Positions 3 through 61,127 of a DNA stretch of 64,000 nt are shown one piece after another. Origin of the DNA: a virus (taxonomy: Duplodnaviria > Caudoviricetes); the IMG/VR virus record IMGVR_UViG_3300032332_001510, positions 1-64,000 of that record, one strand, 5' to 3'. Numbering within the stretch: the stretch's first letter is position 1; the number at the start of each line of letters is the position of its first letter. A model generated the notes under the pieces. The model did no database searches and was not told the origin of the DNA. It worked only from the letters and a program-made list of their open reading frames with translations. The translations under genes and the position numbers were made by a program.

Positions 3-92
3 CCGAATGATGGTAACCGATATCGTTGGGATGAGTCTATAACTGCTTGGGTTGAAATACCGCAATCAATTAGAAAAGAAAATAATGGTTAA
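3..92 (+). CDS. 3' end of an upstream CDS (partial), tail-fibre-assembly-like C-terminus
   Basis: Hand translation PNDGNRYRWDESITAWVEIPQSIRKENNG*; the P.DG..Y.WDE...WVE pattern is typical of small phage tail-associated proteins. Confidence 0.5.
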   Translation, partial: PNDGNRYRWDESITAWVEIPQSIRKENNG

Positions 93-447
93 CGATATTA
101 AAATAGTAGTCAGTATCATTATATTTATTGCAGTAGCCATAAGCGGATTTTTTATTTACAATAAAATTTATACTCGCGGCTATGAGCAAGCACACCTAGA
201 GTGTGTGGAGGCTAAACAACAATATGAACTAGAACTACAACAAAAAATTACACAATTGGAGGGTAGTTTAACCGCTGCTCAACAACAAGCAGCACAAAAA
301 CAGCAAAAATTAAGCAAACAAATCATTAGTATTAGTGAACAACTAAAACTGCAGCCGGTTACTATTATAAAAAACGGTGAGTGTTTACCATCACCCACTT
401 TTGTAAATAGTATCAGCGAGGCAATTATGCGAGCCAACGAAAAATGA
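85..447 (+). CDS. i-spanin (Rz-like)
   Basis: N-terminal TM helix then long coiled coil, directly upstream of a lipoprotein gene; ATG at 85 is a more likely start than the track start at 52. Confidence 0.7.
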   Translation: MVNDIKIVVSIIIFIAVAISGFFIYNKIYTRGYEQAHLECVEAKQQYELELQQKITQLEGSLTAAQQQAAQKQQKLSKQIISISEQLKLQPVTIIKNGECLPSPTFVNSISEAIMRANEK

Positions 448-737
448 AAACACAAACAATACTCAGCTTTTGTCTTGTTGCCGCGCTTACAGGATGTGGA
501 ATTTTTTCTAAAAAATCTGTGGAAACACCAGCGATTGCAGCAACACAAAAACATATAGTAATAGAGCCGCAGCTATTAATTGGTTGTGAGCTATTACCAC
601 AATTGCCTCAAAATCCCACATATGAACATATAGCCCAACACTATATTACAATAATTGGACTATATGGTCAGTGTGCATTAAAACAAACAGCAAGTATAGA
701 AACTATTCGTAAACTTGCTAACCTGGACAACCCATGA
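444..737 (+). CDS. o-spanin lipoprotein (Rz1-like)
   Basis: Signal peptide with lipobox LTG-C; Pro-rich body; follows the i-spanin. Confidence 0.7.
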   Translation: MKTQTILSFCLVAALTGCGIFSKKSVETPAIAATQKHIVIEPQLLIGCELLPQLPQNPTYEHIAQHYITIIGLYGQCALKQTASIETIRKLANLDNP

Positions 738-1153
738 AAGAACACTTACGCTTCCGTAATATTTTTATGATTGGCGGCACCATTATTGTTATGCTGTATC
801 TTTTTATCAGCGACCCTAATGGTGGTAATATGACCATTCCATTTTTAGCTAAGCTGGCTACACCCATTATAGCGGTATGGTTTGCACACCTTGCACGTCG
901 TGCACTATTTGACTATGCAGATATGGAATCACTGCTGAAAAAAGCACGCGAAACTGCCACTGGCGCAGGTTTAGCTTTTGTTGGTCTTTGTATTATTATC
1001 TACGGCTTGCTTGGCCTTTTTGGCTCGCAAGTCTACGCACAACCAGTTGCTACCTATATTCCTAAGCAAGCATATGAGCACCTGCCTACTGTGCAGCAAG
1101 AAAAAGACAAGGTTTGGGCCACACACCCAAAGCCGCATACCTTGCTAGTCTAA
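734..1153 (+). CDS. holin-like 3-TM membrane protein; N-terminal part of a probable holin/endolysin fusion
   Basis: Three hydrophobic segments; the C-terminal ~30 aa look like the start of a transglycosylase that continues in the -1 frame. Confidence 0.55.
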   Translation: MKEHLRFRNIFMIGGTIIVMLYLFISDPNGGNMTIPFLAKLATPIIAVWFAHLARRALFDYADMESLLKKARETATGAGLAFVGLCIIIYGLLGLFGSQVYAQPVATYIPKQAYEHLPTVQQEKDKVWATHPKPHTLLV

Positions 1154-1689
1154 TAGAGCATGAGTCCTGCATCTCCTTAACACACAGTAAGTGTTGGAAT
1201 TCACGCTCACGCCTACGTAGCGATCGTGAGGAAGGTGCAGGACTTGGTCAGATTACCAGGGCTTTTAAAGCGGATGGAAGTATTAGGTTTGATGCTCTAT
1301 CAGACTTAAAACATAAGTATAATAAGGAATTATACGACTTAAACTGGCAAGTAGTTTATGACAGACCAGACCTACAAATTCGTGCATTAGCATTGATGAT
1401 GCGCAATAATTATCAGTATTTTAACCGACATGTTAAAGATCCCTATCAAGCATATGCTTTTGCTGATGCCGCTTATAACGGTGGTGCTGGTGGAGTTGAC
1501 CATGAGCGCAGAGCATGTAAACTGGCTAGTTGGTGTGATCCCGACAAGTGGTTTGATAACGTAGAAAAACTTTGTTTAAAATCTAAGGTGGCACTTTACG
1601 GTAATCGTAGTGCTTGTGATATTAACCGCCATCATGTAGAGGATGTAATTAACACACGTAGCAATAAGTATACAAAGTTTCTTCATTAA
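1114..1689 (+). CDS. lytic transglycosylase (SLT-like) endolysin domain
   Basis: LIEHES catalytic Glu, GAGLGQIT and AAYNGG motifs; only a TTG start with no clear RBS. Confidence 0.8.
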   Translation: MGHTPKAAYLASLIEHESCISLTHSKCWNSRSRLRSDREEGAGLGQITRAFKADGSIRFDALSDLKHKYNKELYDLNWQVVYDRPDLQIRALALMMRNNYQYFNRHVKDPYQAYAFADAAYNGGAGGVDHERRACKLASWCDPDKWFDNVEKLCLKSKVALYGNRSACDINRHHVEDVINTRSNKYTKFLH

Positions 1690-10768: not shown

Positions 10769-12064
10769 TTATACCAGTTCAATGTCCCAGCCTTTACGCA
10801 TATAAAATCCAAGTCTATCCCTATTTTGTTTTTTATCCATAAAACCTGAAAATTGCATATCTAATACTAGTGGAACTAGTTTATCCTCATGTTCACGTTG
10901 AATTCTGCCAACAATTTGCTCTAGTAAACTATCATTTGCAATAGGTACAGCTAAGATAACGCAACTAAGAGAATTTATGGAGATACCTTCACTAAAGATT
11001 TGTCTGCTACCAGCAATGCACATTTTTTCTTTTGTGAGCAGCTGTTGTTTAATTTGTTGACGTTGTTCAAAGTTGGTTTCACCAGTAACCAACACGCATG
11101 TTTCTCCAACATATTCTTTTACCTTTTGTAGAAATCCAACTCTATCTGCAATAACTAATACTTGATGCCCAAGCGCAACTTGAATTTTTGCTAGTCCAGC
11201 AATAAATGCCTGATAATCTTCATCTTCAGTAAGATCGTTAATTTTTTCTACCCAAGTAGCTCCAGGTTTTAATGTAATACCTGTTTGTACTAGTTTAACC
11301 TTAGGATTTAGTGTGTGTGATTGTGGCGGTTTGTAGATTTTACTGCCAAAAAAGTCAGAAAACATTATGTGTTTACCGTCTTTTCTGATCATAGTTCCAC
11401 TTAGTGCTATTCTATAACGAGCATGAAAATCATCTATTAATTGTGAAAAAGTACTAGCAGGGCAATGATGTGCTTCATCTAAGATTATAGTACCAAATTC
11501 TTTTGCCAGTTTAGCACTATGTTTTATTAGAGTTTGTACATTGGCTACAGTAATAGCATGATCTTCCCAGTTCATGCTACCACCACCTATAATGCCTGCT
11601 TGCATACCAAATAACACTTCAACTTCTTCGCGCCACTGATCTCGCAATGCAGTGGTGTGTGTAACTACTAGTGTTTTTTGACCTAATTTTTTAGCTACAT
11701 GCAGTGCAGTAAAAGTTTTGCCCCAACCTACTAGTGCGTTAATAAAACAAGTATCCGTAATTTCATCATAGACTACCTGTTGTGTGTCCCGTAATGCAAA
11801 TTTAGGACTAGGAAAAGGTGCTGGTACTTGTGTACGTTTATCTACAATTTCATAGCCTTTGGGTATTAGGTCTAGTCTGCCCTGTGGAATACTCAAGATA
11901 TTTTTAGGCAAAATTTTATAGTTTCTGATAGTTTCTACTGTACTAAACTGCTTACTGCCTGTGTCCTTGTGGATTTTATATGTAAGCGTTTTTATAATCT
12001 GCTTGGTTTCTTCTACGCCGGGATTATCCAAATAGATTCTGTTAGATATAATTGCTTTAGCCAC
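10769..12064 (-). CDS. D10: SF2 DNA helicase (T5 D10/UvsW-like)
   Basis: VGWGKT, DEAHH, LSGT, QIVGRIQR motifs. Confidence 0.92.
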   Translation of the reverse strand: MAKAIISNRIYLDNPGVEETKQIIKTLTYKIHKDTGSKQFSTVETIRNYKILPKNILSIPQGRLDLIPKGYEIVDKRTQVPAPFPSPKFALRDTQQVVYDEITDTCFINALVGWGKTFTALHVAKKLGQKTLVVTHTTALRDQWREEVEVLFGMQAGIIGGGSMNWEDHAITVANVQTLIKHSAKLAKEFGTIILDEAHHCPASTFSQLIDDFHARYRIALSGTMIRKDGKHIMFSDFFGSKIYKPPQSHTLNPKVKLVQTGITLKPGATWVEKINDLTEDEDYQAFIAGLAKIQVALGHQVLVIADRVGFLQKVKEYVGETCVLVTGETNFEQRQQIKQQLLTKEKMCIAGSRQIFSEGISINSLSCVILAVPIANDSLLEQIVGRIQREHEDKLVPLVLDMQFSGFMDKKQNRDRLGFYMRKGWDIELV

Positions 12065-53964: not shown

Positions 53965-54947
53965 TAGTAACTGATAATGAGCCCCAGCAAATTAACGGCG
54001 TGGTTACAACGTTCCACAACCTGGAACGTTGGGCAGATCGCCATGGCTACGAGTTTGTATATTGTGATCCCCGGCAGTTCCCTAATTGTGGCGCTCCTGG
54101 CTATGGCGATATTAGGCTATCGTGGCCTAGTAAAATTGGCCAAATACTTGAGGGGATAAACCCTGATTACGTACATATTGCGACGGAGGGGCCGCTGGGG
54201 CTAGCAGCCCGTTGCTGGATGGATCGGCATGGTTGGCGATATAATACCAGCTATCATACTAAAATACCAGAAGCCTTAAAACGCTACTATGGCATACCAG
54301 AATCTTGGACTTATCGTTACCTGCGCTGGTTTCACAAGCACAGTGGCAAGGTTTTAGCTACTACGGTCAGCATGGTAGACGAGCTTAAGCAACAGGGCTT
54401 TTCCGGAACTATTGTGCCCTGGACGCGTGGCGTAGATCGCCAGCAGTTTTATCCGCTGGAGCATGGGCGTAAAACACCATATCCAACACTCTTATGGGTT
54501 GGCAGAGTTGCCCCCGAAAAGTCTTGCGAAGACTTTTGCCAGCTAGACTACTTGGGTGCTAAAAAGATTGTGGTTGGTGATGGGCCACAACTAAAGTATT
54601 TAGCGGCAAAATATCCTGAAGTCCAATTTGTGGGTATGCAAACCGGCGATGCACTAGCCAGCTACTATCAACAAGCAGATTGCTTGGTTTTTACCAGTCG
54701 CTGGGATACTTTTGGTATAGTAATGTTAGAGGCCATGGCGTGTGGTACACCTGTGGCAGCTTACCCAGTTTGTGGTCCCAAAGACGTTATTGAACTAGAC
54801 AGAACTGGCTATACTAGTCCAGATCTTAAATTAGCCGTGGCACGTGCACTGGCAATTCCCCGTCACGTAGTAGTCGTAGCCAGCTATCGTTGGTCGTGGG
54901 AAAAATGCTGGCAGATATTTGAATATAATCTAGTAAGGAGACTGTAA
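53946..54947 (+). CDS. GT4 glycosyltransferase, Agt/MgdA-like glycolipid synthase
   Basis: ILIVTD..QINGVV.T, HIATEGPLG, SYHTK.PE, WTRGVD, GRVAPEK, DTFGIVMLEAMACGTPVAAYPV. Confidence 0.88.
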   Translation: MSKTILIVTDNEPQQINGVVTTFHNLERWADRHGYEFVYCDPRQFPNCGAPGYGDIRLSWPSKIGQILEGINPDYVHIATEGPLGLAARCWMDRHGWRYNTSYHTKIPEALKRYYGIPESWTYRYLRWFHKHSGKVLATTVSMVDELKQQGFSGTIVPWTRGVDRQQFYPLEHGRKTPYPTLLWVGRVAPEKSCEDFCQLDYLGAKKIVVGDGPQLKYLAAKYPEVQFVGMQTGDALASYYQQADCLVFTSRWDTFGIVMLEAMACGTPVAAYPVCGPKDVIELDRTGYTSPDLKLAVARALAIPRHVVVVASYRWSWEKCWQIFEYNLVRRL

Positions 54948-59195: not shown

Positions 59196-61127
59196 ATGGT
59201 AGATAAAAATAAAGTAATTACCCTAACCAGTACATTTACTAAGAGCAATCTACCTACCAAAGACATTAGCATTGATTCGATTATGATTGAAGGTTACGCA
59301 AGTACCATTGATACTGATCGTCAAGGCGATATTGTGCCTAGTACAGTATGGAAAAGTGGTGTGCAAAATTACTTGAAAAATCCAGTAATCTTAGCATATC
59401 ATGATCATAGTGAGCCTATTGGTAGAATGGTAGATCATAGAATTGATGGTAAAGGTTTATGGATTAAAGCACGAATTTCTGCAGCTGCAGGAGAGGTGTT
59501 TAATCTTATCAAAGACGGAGTACTTACTGCGTTTAGTATTGGTTTTCGTATCGCTGATGCGGAATATAATGCAGCCACAGAGCTGTTTGTTGTTAAAGAA
59601 CTGGAACTACATGAGATTTCAGTAGTGTCCGTACCTGCTAATCAAAACACACTATTTAGTTTGTCTAAGTCGTTTAAAACCGACGAAGAAGTTAAGTCTT
59701 TTAAACTGCAATTTGCGCCCAAGTTAGAATCAGCTAAAGGGCTAGAGTCCACAATGGAAGCAAATGGCGACACTACAAAGGAATGGAAAATGGATCCTAA
59801 AGACCTAGAAAAATTGCTTGCCGATACAGCTCGTCAAGCTGCTGTTGAAACAGCAAAAGCTCTTGCTGAACAGCAAGCCCAAGCTGCTGTTGAAAAAGCA
59901 GCACAAGATCGCGCTCAAGCAGAACTTGACGCAAAAATCAAAGCCGCTGTTGCACAGGTGCAAACAGTTGACACAGGTGCAGAGCGTCTACTTGCAGAAG
60001 TTGAAAAGCGTGTTGCTGAACAAGAGCAATCACACAAGTCAGTTATTGCTGGTCTAGAAGCTACACTCAAAGAAAAAGCTGCTGAACTCGAAGCCATTCA
60101 GAAGTCACGTATGCAATTTGCTGCTGATGGTAGCAACAATGCAATGACTTATGCTGAAAAAGAAAAAGCAGTTCTTTTAGCTAAAATGGCTAACAAGGGT
60201 CTTGAGGACACCAAGTTTGGTCGTGGAATGGTTGAAAAGTATGGTGCACATGTACCAAGTGCTACTTGGGAACTAGAAGTTAGCATGAGTATGGAAGCTG
60301 AGGTTCGTCGCCGCCTAGTTGTTGCACCATTATTCCGTCAGATTGCTATGCAAACTAACGTAATGAAGATTCCAGTTAATCCAGAAGCAGGTACAGCTCA
60401 GTGGATTGATAATGCTAATTTTGGTACATCAACAAGTGGCGGTAATAATGCTACTCATGCACTAAAAGAGATTACACTCAGCGCATATAAAATTGCTACC
60501 AACGAGTACACAGCTTATGAAGAAGAGGAAGATAGCCTTATCGCTATTATGCCTGTAATTCGTGATGGCATGATTCGTCGTGTTGCTCGGGGAGTTGACA
60601 AAGGATTCCTACGTGGAGCAGGTGCTACTAGCGGCGATCCTATCAGCGGTCTAGTAACACTAGCTGGTACTTCAGGTCAAGTTGCAAACTCTAGCAGTGG
60701 TGCAGCGTTTACTGTTGCTAACCTACGTAATCTACGTAAGGGCCTTGGAGTTTGGGGCCTTGATCCAGCAGATGTAGTTTATATTGTTGATACAACAACA
60801 TACTACAATCTACTTGAGGATTCAGTATTTCAAACAATGAACCAAGTTGGTCCACAAGCTACATTACTAACTGGTCAGATTGGTCAGATTGGTAATTCAC
60901 CAGTACTAGTTTCTGGTGAGTTTGTAGGAACTGGAGCAAGTGGTAGTATTGCTGGTGTTTGCGTTGCACCAGGTAACTTTATTGTTGGTAATCAGCGCGG
61001 TCTCCGCATTGATACACAAGAACTAGTTGAGACACAGCGTCGCGTTATGGTTGCTAGCTTACGTACAGGCTTTGCACAAGTTACAAGCAACTATGGTTCT
61101 GGCGTTACATCACTCAAGTATACTTGA
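59196..61127 (+). CDS. prohead protease-scaffold-major capsid protein fusion
   Basis: IEGYAST, HDHSEPIG, FSIGF, EISVVSVPAN protease motifs; Ala/Glu/Lys coiled coil; HK97-fold capsid half; single uninterrupted ORF. Confidence 0.92.
   Translation: MVDKNKVITLTSTFTKSNLPTKDISIDSIMIEGYASTIDTDRQGDIVPSTVWKSGVQNYLKNPVILAYHDHSEPIGRMVDHRIDGKGLWIKARISAAAGEVFNLIKDGVLTAFSIGFRIADAEYNAATELFVVKELELHEISVVSVPANQNTLFSLSKSFKTDEEVKSFKLQFAPKLESAKGLESTMEANGDTTKEWKMDPKDLEKLLADTARQAAVETAKALAEQQAQAAVEKAAQDRAQAELDAKIKAAVAQVQTVDTGAERLLAEVEKRVAEQEQSHKSVIAGLEATLKEKAAELEAIQKSRMQFAADGSNNAMTYAEKEKAVLLAKMANKGLEDTKFGRGMVEKYGAHVPSATWELEVSMSMEAEVRRRLVVAPLFRQIAMQTNVMKIPVNPEAGTAQWIDNANFGTSTSGGNNATHALKEITLSAYKIATNEYTAYEEEEDSLIAIMPVIRDGMIRRVARGVDKGFLRGAGATSGDPISGLVTLAGTSGQVANSSSGAAFTVANLRNLRKGLGVWGLDPADVVYIVDTTTYYNLLEDSVFQTMNQVGPQATLLTGQIGQIGNSPVLVSGEFVGTGASGSIAGVCVAPGNFIVGNQRGLRIDTQELVETQRRVMVASLRTGFAQVTSNYGSGVTSLKYT

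Follow-up and report, generated by a model that had tools for sequence, protein, structure and literature searches.

A putative programmed -1 frameshift joining a holin-like membrane protein to a lytic transglycosylase in uncultured tailed phages

Introduction

In the lysis cassettes of YuA-like phages, an Rz-like spanin (gp60) is accompanied by a holin (gp61; phrog_8226, 111 aa) and an endolysin (gp62; phrog_669), the last two being independently initiated genes, and the endolysin has a signal peptide of its own. Signal-anchor-release (SAR) and signal-peptide endolysins, such as P1 Lyz, R21 of phage 21, and Mu gp22 with its releasin gp25, export their muralytic domain by means of an N-terminal hydrophobic segment, and the enzyme is held at or released from the inner membrane (PMC9239132). 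Here we describe a locus at positions 734–1689 of a 64,000-nucleotide (nt) stretch of DNA from a Caudoviricetes virus (the window, which is the first 64 kb of the 77.6-kb IMG/VR phage record IMGVR_UViG_3300032332_001510), in which a holin-like open reading frame (ORF1) and the catalytic ORF of an endolysin (ORF2) lie in different frames and appear to be joined by a programmed -1 ribosomal frameshift. The gene order is that of the YuA-like cassette, the catalytic domain is homologous to the YuA endolysin (~44% identity), and in both systems an AxA-Q(D) motif and YIP or FVP follow a hydrophobic segment. Unlike in YuA, however, one hydrophobic segment, the third transmembrane (TM) segment of ORF1 (TM3), would serve both the holin-like part and the enzyme, and the two parts are joined only through the change of frame. 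Compared with the SAR endolysins, with which it shares N-terminal hydrophobic export, the locus has three TM segments ahead of the enzyme and a second predicted product, the membrane part alone, from the same start codon.

Programmed frameshifting in tailed phages is documented mainly for tail chaperones, and for a few capsid and replication genes. Lambda's G/GT tail chaperone, which shifts at G GGA AAG, and related chaperones of tailed phages have a heptamer of the X XXA AAG type near the end of the upstream ORF, as the window's gene does, and a short and a long product with a common N-terminal part are made in a ratio set during translation, as we propose here. Shifts of the lambda G/GT type require no strong RNA stimulator. 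The window's gene differs in belonging to a lysis cassette, in having a polytopic membrane domain as the common part and an enzyme as the extension, and in showing no homology to the chaperone genes. The Escherichia coli dnaX gene (A AAA AAG; products tau and gamma) likewise relies on -1 slippage of tRNA-Lys on AAG and yields two products with a common N-terminus, but its shifted product is the truncated one and is promoted by a strong Shine-Dalgarno (SD) sequence and a stem-loop, whereas in the window it is the long product that depends on the shift, and searches revealed no stimulator. At the lysis locus of phi-vML3 (work of 1994, cited in PMC3111421 and PMC10885494), a lysozyme-like and a small holin-like protein are produced from one region; PMC3111421 describes them as two proteins and not as the outcome of a demonstrated X XXY YYZ shift. 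Our literature searches for frameshifting with an endolysin or a holin returned only tail-chaperone and capsid cases, and the available parts of a large 2016 review of recoding contain no such entry (PMC5009743). Programmed frameshifting that joins a holin-like part to an endolysin thus appears to be new to the literature searched, and the comparisons described below strongly support the proposed shift.

Results and Discussion

A phased slippery heptamer at the frame junction

The original prediction, which was made from the letters of the window alone, held that the two ORFs are connected by a -1 frameshift at a CCCAAAG heptamer to give a short membrane protein and a membrane-linked endolysin. 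Its coordinates, the -1 frame relation and the phasing of the heptamer (1126–1132) were all borne out when we re-read the sequence, as was the description of ORF1 as a three-TM protein, for which a hydropathy scan gives segments at residues 7–25, 33–51 and 78–96. The heptamer C CCA AAG sits within the overlap of ORF1 and ORF2, between the stop of the -1 frame and the stop of the 0 frame.

We consider it very probable that 734–1689 is one lysis gene decoded in two ways through a conserved programmed -1 ribosomal frameshift, the products being a holin-like protein and a holin-like/transglycosylase fusion. Most ribosomes would translate ORF1 as far as the TAA at 1151 and release a 139-aa, holin-like inner-membrane protein with three TM segments. 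Some would slip back by one nucleotide on C CCA AAG, with tandem re-pairing of tRNA-Pro and tRNA-Lys, and would go on in the -1 frame to 1689, producing a 318-aa protein in which the same three-TM domain carries, periplasmic to TM3, an enzyme domain of the family 1 lytic transglycosylase type. The predicted junction peptide of this shifted product is ...VWATHPKAAYLASLIEHESC.... What sequence comparison shows is a frame break at a phased site, a downstream ORF that lacks a separate start, two parts that are both held by purifying selection, a shifted product collinear with unbroken homologues, and a transglycosylase fold; from these we infer that the shift is ribosomal and occurs at this heptamer. 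More tentatively, the short product may be a holin or release factor, the frameshift may set a high ratio of membrane protein to enzyme, and TM3 may keep the enzyme tethered, unless signal peptidase frees it by cutting behind the AxA motif.

The window contains seven copies of CCCAAAG, against 7.2 expected. Because this is the chance level, we set aside the mere presence of the heptamer as an argument, and the case made here rests on context and comparison: what exceeds chance is the position of the heptamer at the frame junction, together with its conservation and covariation in relatives. The other six copies lie at 11857, 15844, 21523, 32363 and 33566 on the - strand and at 54777 on the + strand. 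None of the six is in slippery phase within its long ORF, where about two would be expected; with six copies the difference is not significant, and it hints at most at an avoidance of phased CCCAAAG elsewhere in the window.

Conservation of the frame break in related loci

We compared the DNA of 44 viral, 80 metagenomic and 32 genomic loci by locating the catalytic motif LIEHES and reading all frames around it, which left 75 unique in-frame loci and 29 unique loci with the frame break, the latter drawn from more than 20 datasets. At the protein level, a search with ORF2 retrieved more than 100 clusters (90% identity) that are 60–89% identical to it, nearly all of them called at 189–193 aa and nearly all beginning with [M/L/V]-x-x-[T/S/P/A]-P-K. 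A search with ORF1 retrieved 225 clusters of 128–152 aa; among the best 120 of these, the C-terminus is W..HPK plus six residues in 114 and W..HPN in 5. The break is therefore kept across more than 200 protein clusters.

A phased X XXY YYZ heptamer is present at the junction in all 29 unique frame-broken loci, 28 of which have it at exactly the window's position, 24 nt before the catalytic motif. CCCAAAG occurs in the window's clade and in several other lineages, and the variants are CCCAAAA (L059 and L060), CCCAAAC (L062), CCCTTTT (L058 and L080) and AAAAAAG (L114), the last lying 3 nt downstream of the window's position with the protein spacing kept. Synonymous positions flanking the heptamer vary freely among the frame-broken loci, and the identity of the heptamer itself changes while its X XXY YYZ form and its phase stay. 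At the homologous site of the in-frame loci, only 2 of the 75 unique junctions carry a phased heptamer. The 0-frame stop of the relatives lies 10–46 nt 3' of the heptamer (-8 to +28 relative to the motif), and when the loci are combined, the stops of the two frames leave about 16 nt, starting at the heptamer, for any change of frame.

These variants also bear on whether RNA polymerase, rather than the ribosome, slips on the C/A run and generates a subpopulation of mRNA with an in-frame fusion. Some relatives do have longer A runs (CCCAAAAAAT in L059, AACAAAAAAG in L114), but in most loci, the window included, the runs consist of just three C and three A or four T. Polymerase slippage needs homopolymers far longer than these. 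The feature that is conserved, moreover, is a codon-phased X XXY YYZ, which is specific to tandem tRNA re-pairing, so that transcriptional slippage seems very unlikely here, even though the recoding review (PMC5009743) names certain dnaX genes in which it takes the place of ribosomal shifting.

Purifying selection acts on either side of the break. Within the frame-broken clade, where synonymous divergence (dS) is about 1, the ratio of nonsynonymous to synonymous substitution rates (dN/dS) amounts to 0.067 in the TM domain, 0.168 from TM3 to the heptamer and 0.118 in the catalytic domain. The original prediction had allowed that the break might be an assembly error or a sign of pseudogenisation, that is, a one-nucleotide error in the contig or a recent inactivating deletion in an ancestral single ORF. 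A single contig cannot by itself rule out such an error, and compared with in-frame homologues reading HPKP or HPRP, the frame-broken form does resemble the loss of one base just after a pre-existing C CCA AAG. The same break, however, recurs in contigs from more than 20 datasets and assemblers, always with a phased heptamer, and members separated by a dS of about 1 keep a dN/dS of about 0.1 downstream of it. The low dN/dS on both sides of the break excludes a pseudogene and, together with the many independent assemblies, an assembly error, and we regard an artefact or dead gene as the least probable of the explanations considered.

A metagenome-assembled genome (MAG) labelled Pirellulales includes a frame-broken phage contig (L130) with 86% identity to the window's gene, and a MAG labelled Woesearchaeota includes an in-frame relative (L149); all other genomic relatives are from Betaproteobacteria, and the two bins look like contamination by phage contigs.

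No independent start for the catalytic ORF

If ORF2 were a separate gene, it would need to be initiated on its own. Its sole candidate start, as the original prediction had noted, is the TTG at 1114, which has no recognisable ribosome-binding site: the nearby AAGG stops only 2 nt short of it, and the sequence at SD distance is otherwise free of purine-rich stretches. This TTG is explained as a by-product, because a conserved Trp codon of the 0 frame supplies its TG. Among relatives, the codon at this position is TTG, GTG or CTG, with CTG in 7 of 18 close viral loci and ATG in only 1 of the 29 unique loci. In nine of the 29, the catalytic frame offers no ATG, GTG or TTG from its last upstream stop to the catalytic Glu. 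The ORF listing of L007 places the first start of the catalytic frame at an ATG (2783) about 90 codons too late, and in L058 a TAG stands directly 5' of the CCC of the heptamer. Taken together, these comparisons show that an initiation site is lacking for the catalytic ORF.

It is thus improbable that the overlapping ORFs are distinct genes, ORF1 for a holin and ORF2 for a soluble endolysin that is started, or reinitiated after termination, at the NTG at 1114 with no frameshift, though we rate this explanation above the two alternatives discussed already. Overlaps between holin and endolysin genes are common (16 nt in YuA-like phages, for example), gene callers annotate ORF1 and ORF2 apart, and an NTG is found at the position equivalent to 1114 in 20 of the 29 unique loci. 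That NTG, however, is composed of a wobble base and the conserved Trp codon, is replaced by CTG or by no start in 9 of 29 loci, and has no SD sequence ahead of it, and L058 has its stop directly before the heptamer. ORF2 alone would also lack both an export signal and the first helix of the enzyme fold, which is encoded in the ORF1 tail (dN/dS 0.17), and separate genes would leave the conservation and covariation of the heptamer unexplained.

Homologues encoded in a single frame

Joining 734–1132 to 1132–1689 gives a virtual fusion of 318 aa. This fusion is collinear, with no insertion or deletion, with in-frame homologues of 305–341 aa that have the same N-terminal domain. Both forms contain R.R..., [ST]DP.G, AHxARKALFDY, GAGLA, the third TM segment, AxA, YIP, W..HP and LIEHESC, and the spacing from Trp to LIE (W-(11 aa)-LIE) is the same in the two. 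The in-frame forms occur in Duganella, Ideonella, Caenimonas, Parazoarcus, Pseudoduganella and other Betaproteobacteria, as well as in metagenomes, which points to betaproteobacterial hosts for the wider family. Single-ORF homologues (~315 aa, from Burkholderiales, Rhodocyclales and metagenomes) therefore match the shifted product in domain order, motifs and length but differ from the window's gene in being in frame and without a phased heptamer, so that only the full-length protein can be made from them. A third form of about 230–250 aa, which includes YuA gp62, has only a signal peptide ahead of the same mature sequence.

Homologues in a single frame and without the heptamer had been named beforehand as evidence that would speak against a shift. 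They do exist, but only among the more distant relatives. The distant forms show what the shifted product is expected to look like, and they do not argue against the shift. Overall, the comparative data support the original prediction of a programmed -1 frameshift yielding a short membrane protein and a membrane-linked endolysin.

Quick trees were built with IQ-TREE and FastTree; in one of them, the frame-broken loci form one supported group that also contains one in-frame member (Shimodaira-Hasegawa-like approximate likelihood ratio test, 97). This member, L067 (JGI contig Ga0116183_1074872, 797–1744), encodes a 316-aa homologue with HPRPWYL and no heptamer; either the gene has returned to one frame in this lineage or it has kept the ancestral form. 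L114 may reflect a separate origin of the break; tree support at this point is weak, leaving one or two origins. The relations of the frame-broken lineages to each other and to the nearest in-frame forms are poorly resolved in these trees.

The transglycosylase domain

A search of PHROG profiles with ORF2 matched its catalytic part to the endolysin family phrog_669. The original prediction had called this part an SLT domain on the strength of its catalytic motif. No Pfam family matched ORF2 at E <= 0.1, so the call has no SLT profile match behind it; a search of PDB sequences returned no match at E <= 1, and Pfam, NCBIfam and PDB sequence searches with ORF1, ORF2 and the in-frame homologues gave nothing useful. 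The structural comparison, by contrast, upholds the SLT assignment at the level of fold. In an AlphaFold (AF2) model of the in-frame homologue L067, made from a 42-sequence alignment (predicted local distance difference test score, pLDDT, 91), residues 100–316 superpose on the lytic-transglycosylase domain of MltF with Z 18.1 and a root-mean-square deviation of 2.7 A over 174 residues; the Z values against Slt (Slt70) and MltE are 16 and 15, and the top Foldseek matches are all lytic transglycosylases. The model thus indicates the alpha-helical, goose-type lysozyme-like fold of the family-1-type lytic transglycosylases, and transglycosylase as opposed to hydrolase activity is predicted.

The first aligned helix of the model (110–126, pLDDT ~98) corresponds to YIPKQAYEHLPTVQQEKDKVW in the ORF1 tail. 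Since this helix falls within the range aligned to MltF (100–316), the enzyme fold would begin upstream of the break, and ORF2 alone would be incomplete. E17-S18-C19 of ORF2 is invariant in 34 sequences (alignment A1), and E143 is invariant in alignment A3. An E-S motif, with its Glu where the second helix ends, is typical of family 1 lytic transglycosylases, and the Glu of the E-S-C motif is probably the catalytic acid.

The membrane domain and the AxA motif

A hmmscan of ORF1 against PHROGs gave no match. Comparison of a profile of the three-TM domain with the YuA-type holin profile phrog_8226, on the other hand, gave a probability of 88% (E 3.2e-6, 67 columns), with the match spanning the DP loop, TM2, the cytoplasmic loop and the start of TM3, and BLASTP of ORF1 against YuA gp61 gave E 0.002 over 42 residues. 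With 139 aa and three hydrophobic segments, ORF1 is encoded beside spanins and an endolysin domain, as small holins with 2–4 TM segments are. No separate holin candidate was seen near the lysis gene of a close relative for which 2.5 kb of upstream sequence is available. We read ORF1 as holin-like because of this profile match and because no other candidate lies nearby; by the same comparisons, the in-frame 315-aa proteins would be natural holin-like/endolysin fusions, and ORF1 itself may form holes.

TM3 (GAGLAFVGLCIIIYGLLGLFG) is rich in Gly, Ala and Leu and strongly hydrophobic (score 2.39), and two further TM segments lie upstream of it. A SAR endolysin would have an uncleaved, weakly hydrophobic anchor rich in Gly and Ala that is able to leave the bilayer. 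Behind TM3 comes an AxA-Q motif of the kind found in cleaved signal peptides. The motif is conserved, coincides with the VYA|QP site at which the original prediction had placed a possible release of the enzyme, and falls, in alignments with the 230-aa homologues and YuA gp62, on the region where their signal peptides are cleaved. This alignment suggests that the enzyme may be freed by signal peptidase instead of being kept tethered.

Efficiency of the shift and possible stimulators

Several points weigh against the frameshift proposal. The trans-frame protein is itself a prediction from sequence comparison. RNAalifold applied to 21 loci gave a downstream consensus of -1.5 kcal/mol with no compensatory pairs, the single-sequence fold of the window's site is not unusually stable (z -0.76), and alignments inspected by eye revealed no conserved SD-like motif upstream of the heptamer. 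C_CC.A_AA.G is among the three most efficient -1 motifs in E. coli, reaching 54% with a pseudoknot, but the best V_VV.A_AA.G motifs reach only ~0.3% without a stimulator (PMC4066793), a level at which the yield of enzyme could be very low. The host may also possess a tRNA-Lys(CUU), which lowers slippage on AAG. Finally, the holin label depends on an 88%-probability profile match to a family that was itself probably annotated by inference.

Some proven frameshift sites are also without a known stimulator (PMC4066793). For the window's gene, we see two options: either the shift is inefficient, a condition that could be tolerated where little enzyme is needed next to an abundant membrane protein, or the stimulator is of another type. 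An elaboration that we put forward with little confidence is that the frameshift is more than an indel that is tolerated and acts as a regulator of lysis, in which the 0-frame product is a holin or releasin, the rare shifted product is the sole source of endolysin, and the efficiency of the shift fixes their ratio, with the shift perhaps stimulated by the insertion force of TM3 so that endolysin synthesis is coupled to the membrane-insertion machinery. The distance from the end of TM3 to the slip site is ~36 residues. In the alphavirus 6K/TF frameshift, also a -1 shift, membrane integration of a TM segment 44–52 residues upstream is stimulatory (bioRxiv 10.1101/790444; PMC8682741). A bacterial counterpart of that system is speculation by analogy, and alphaviruses differ in being RNA viruses that use the eukaryotic translocon and have an RNA stem-loop as well.

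Implications of the frameshift

A large and diverse clade of uncultured phages apparently needs a -1 shift to make its only recognisable endolysin. If the proposal is correct, it would reveal a novel means of fixing the ratio of lysis proteins and perhaps their timing, and it would explain the start-less 191-aa 'hypothetical protein' that is annotated in hundreds of metagenomic contigs. It would also provide a natural series of forms of one lysis module, comprising heptamer variants, single-ORF forms and two-gene forms, in which the evolution of recoding from a single-base deletion could be followed.

The lysis cassette and its genome context

The lysis cassette fills the first 1.7 kb of the window in the order i-spanin candidate, o-spanin candidate, ORF1 and ORF2, and is followed by PhoH (Table 1). 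The i-spanin candidate occupies the position of the Rz gene in YuA-like cassettes, and the o-spanin candidate overlaps both of its neighbours through an ATGA at each end. In the close relative with 2.5 kb of upstream DNA, the order is a tail-fibre-like gene, two spanin genes, the lysis gene and PhoH. PHROG matches elsewhere in the window include a DNA polymerase, a DnaB-like helicase, a ribonucleotide reductase, a terminase, a portal and a protease/capsid gene.

Table 1. Positions in the window of the lysis cassette and of the elements at the proposed frameshift site
Feature	Position	Strand	Description
Rz-like i-spanin candidate	52–447	+	131 aa, listed from TTG; N-terminal TM segment, coiled-coil-like; weak PHROG matches (phrog_214, E 3e-4, and others)
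o-spanin candidate	444–737	+	97 aa; lipobox-like LTGC read directly; phrog_456 Rz-like spanin, E 8.5e-4
ORF1, holin-like three-TM protein (0-frame product, no shift)	734–1153	+	ATG start; 139 aa; C-terminal end ...KVWATHPKPHTLLV*; stop six codons past the slippery site
TM3 (~residues 77–97), then V-Y-A (1031–1039)	962–1039	+	Signal-anchor- or signal-peptide-like, with AxA|Q motif; from hydropathy and alignments
ORF1 tail YIPKQAYEHLPTVQQEKDKVWATHPK	1052–1132	+	Lies 5' of the shift; predicted to encode helix 1 of the lytic-transglycosylase domain; collinear with in-frame homologues
ORF2	1114–1689	+	TTG; 191 aa; N-terminus MGHTPKAAYLASLIEHESC; -1 frame relative to ORF1
Apparent ORF2 start, TTG	1114–1116	+	Wobble base plus TG of the TGG at 1115, a conserved 0-frame Trp codon
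Slippery heptamer C CCA AAG	1126–1132	+	CCA at 1127 is an ORF1 codon; proposed tandem -1 tRNA slippage with Pro132 in the P site and Lys133 in the A site
-1 frame continuation	1132–1689	+	185 codons plus stop; with 734–1132, predicted 318-aa trans-frame product (three-TM plus lytic transglycosylase domain)
0-frame stop, TAA	1151–1153	+	Read from the sequence
GAG, Glu of the E-S-C motif	1162–1164	+	Putative catalytic acid; E17 of ORF2, E144 of the fusion

Among cultured phages, blastn with positions 1–2400 found no match, and the frame-broken form occurs in no cultured phage of the collection searched. The sole match to ORF1 in a tblastn search of cultured phages was gp151 of Bacillus phage AgentSmith (L001:2501–2818), a stand-alone protein of 105 aa that is 40% identical to ORF1 residues 5–83, the region of the first two TM segments. 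It is labelled 'putative lytic murein transglycosylase', a name presumably transferred from fused homologues, and its gene adjoins that of a DnaB helicase, far from the lysis genes. In the same phage, the homologous transglycosylase gene appears to be split (MW749006.1 126145–128226; L002:1199–3280): gp119 (111 aa) has the signal-proximal part including ALIEHESC, gp120 is annotated as an endonuclease, and gp121 (308 aa) contains the full catalytic domain. The split may be due to insertion of a homing endonuclease or intron, or to duplication.

A second site of predicted frameshifting is present in this phage in a standard context. A tail-assembly-chaperone-like pair of ORFs (L162:2275–3050; genome 65274–66049, outside the window) lies directly upstream of a 2,588-aa tape-measure-like ORF; the downstream member of the pair is read in the -1 frame, and the 40-nt overlap contains, at L162:2658, a phased G GGA AAC of the X XXA AAN type, an arrangement that resembles the classical G/GT-type frameshift. 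Near the end of the window, a 643-aa ORF at 59196–61127 (+ strand) has PHROG matches to the head maturation protease as well as to the major head protein and may thus be a protease/capsid fusion.

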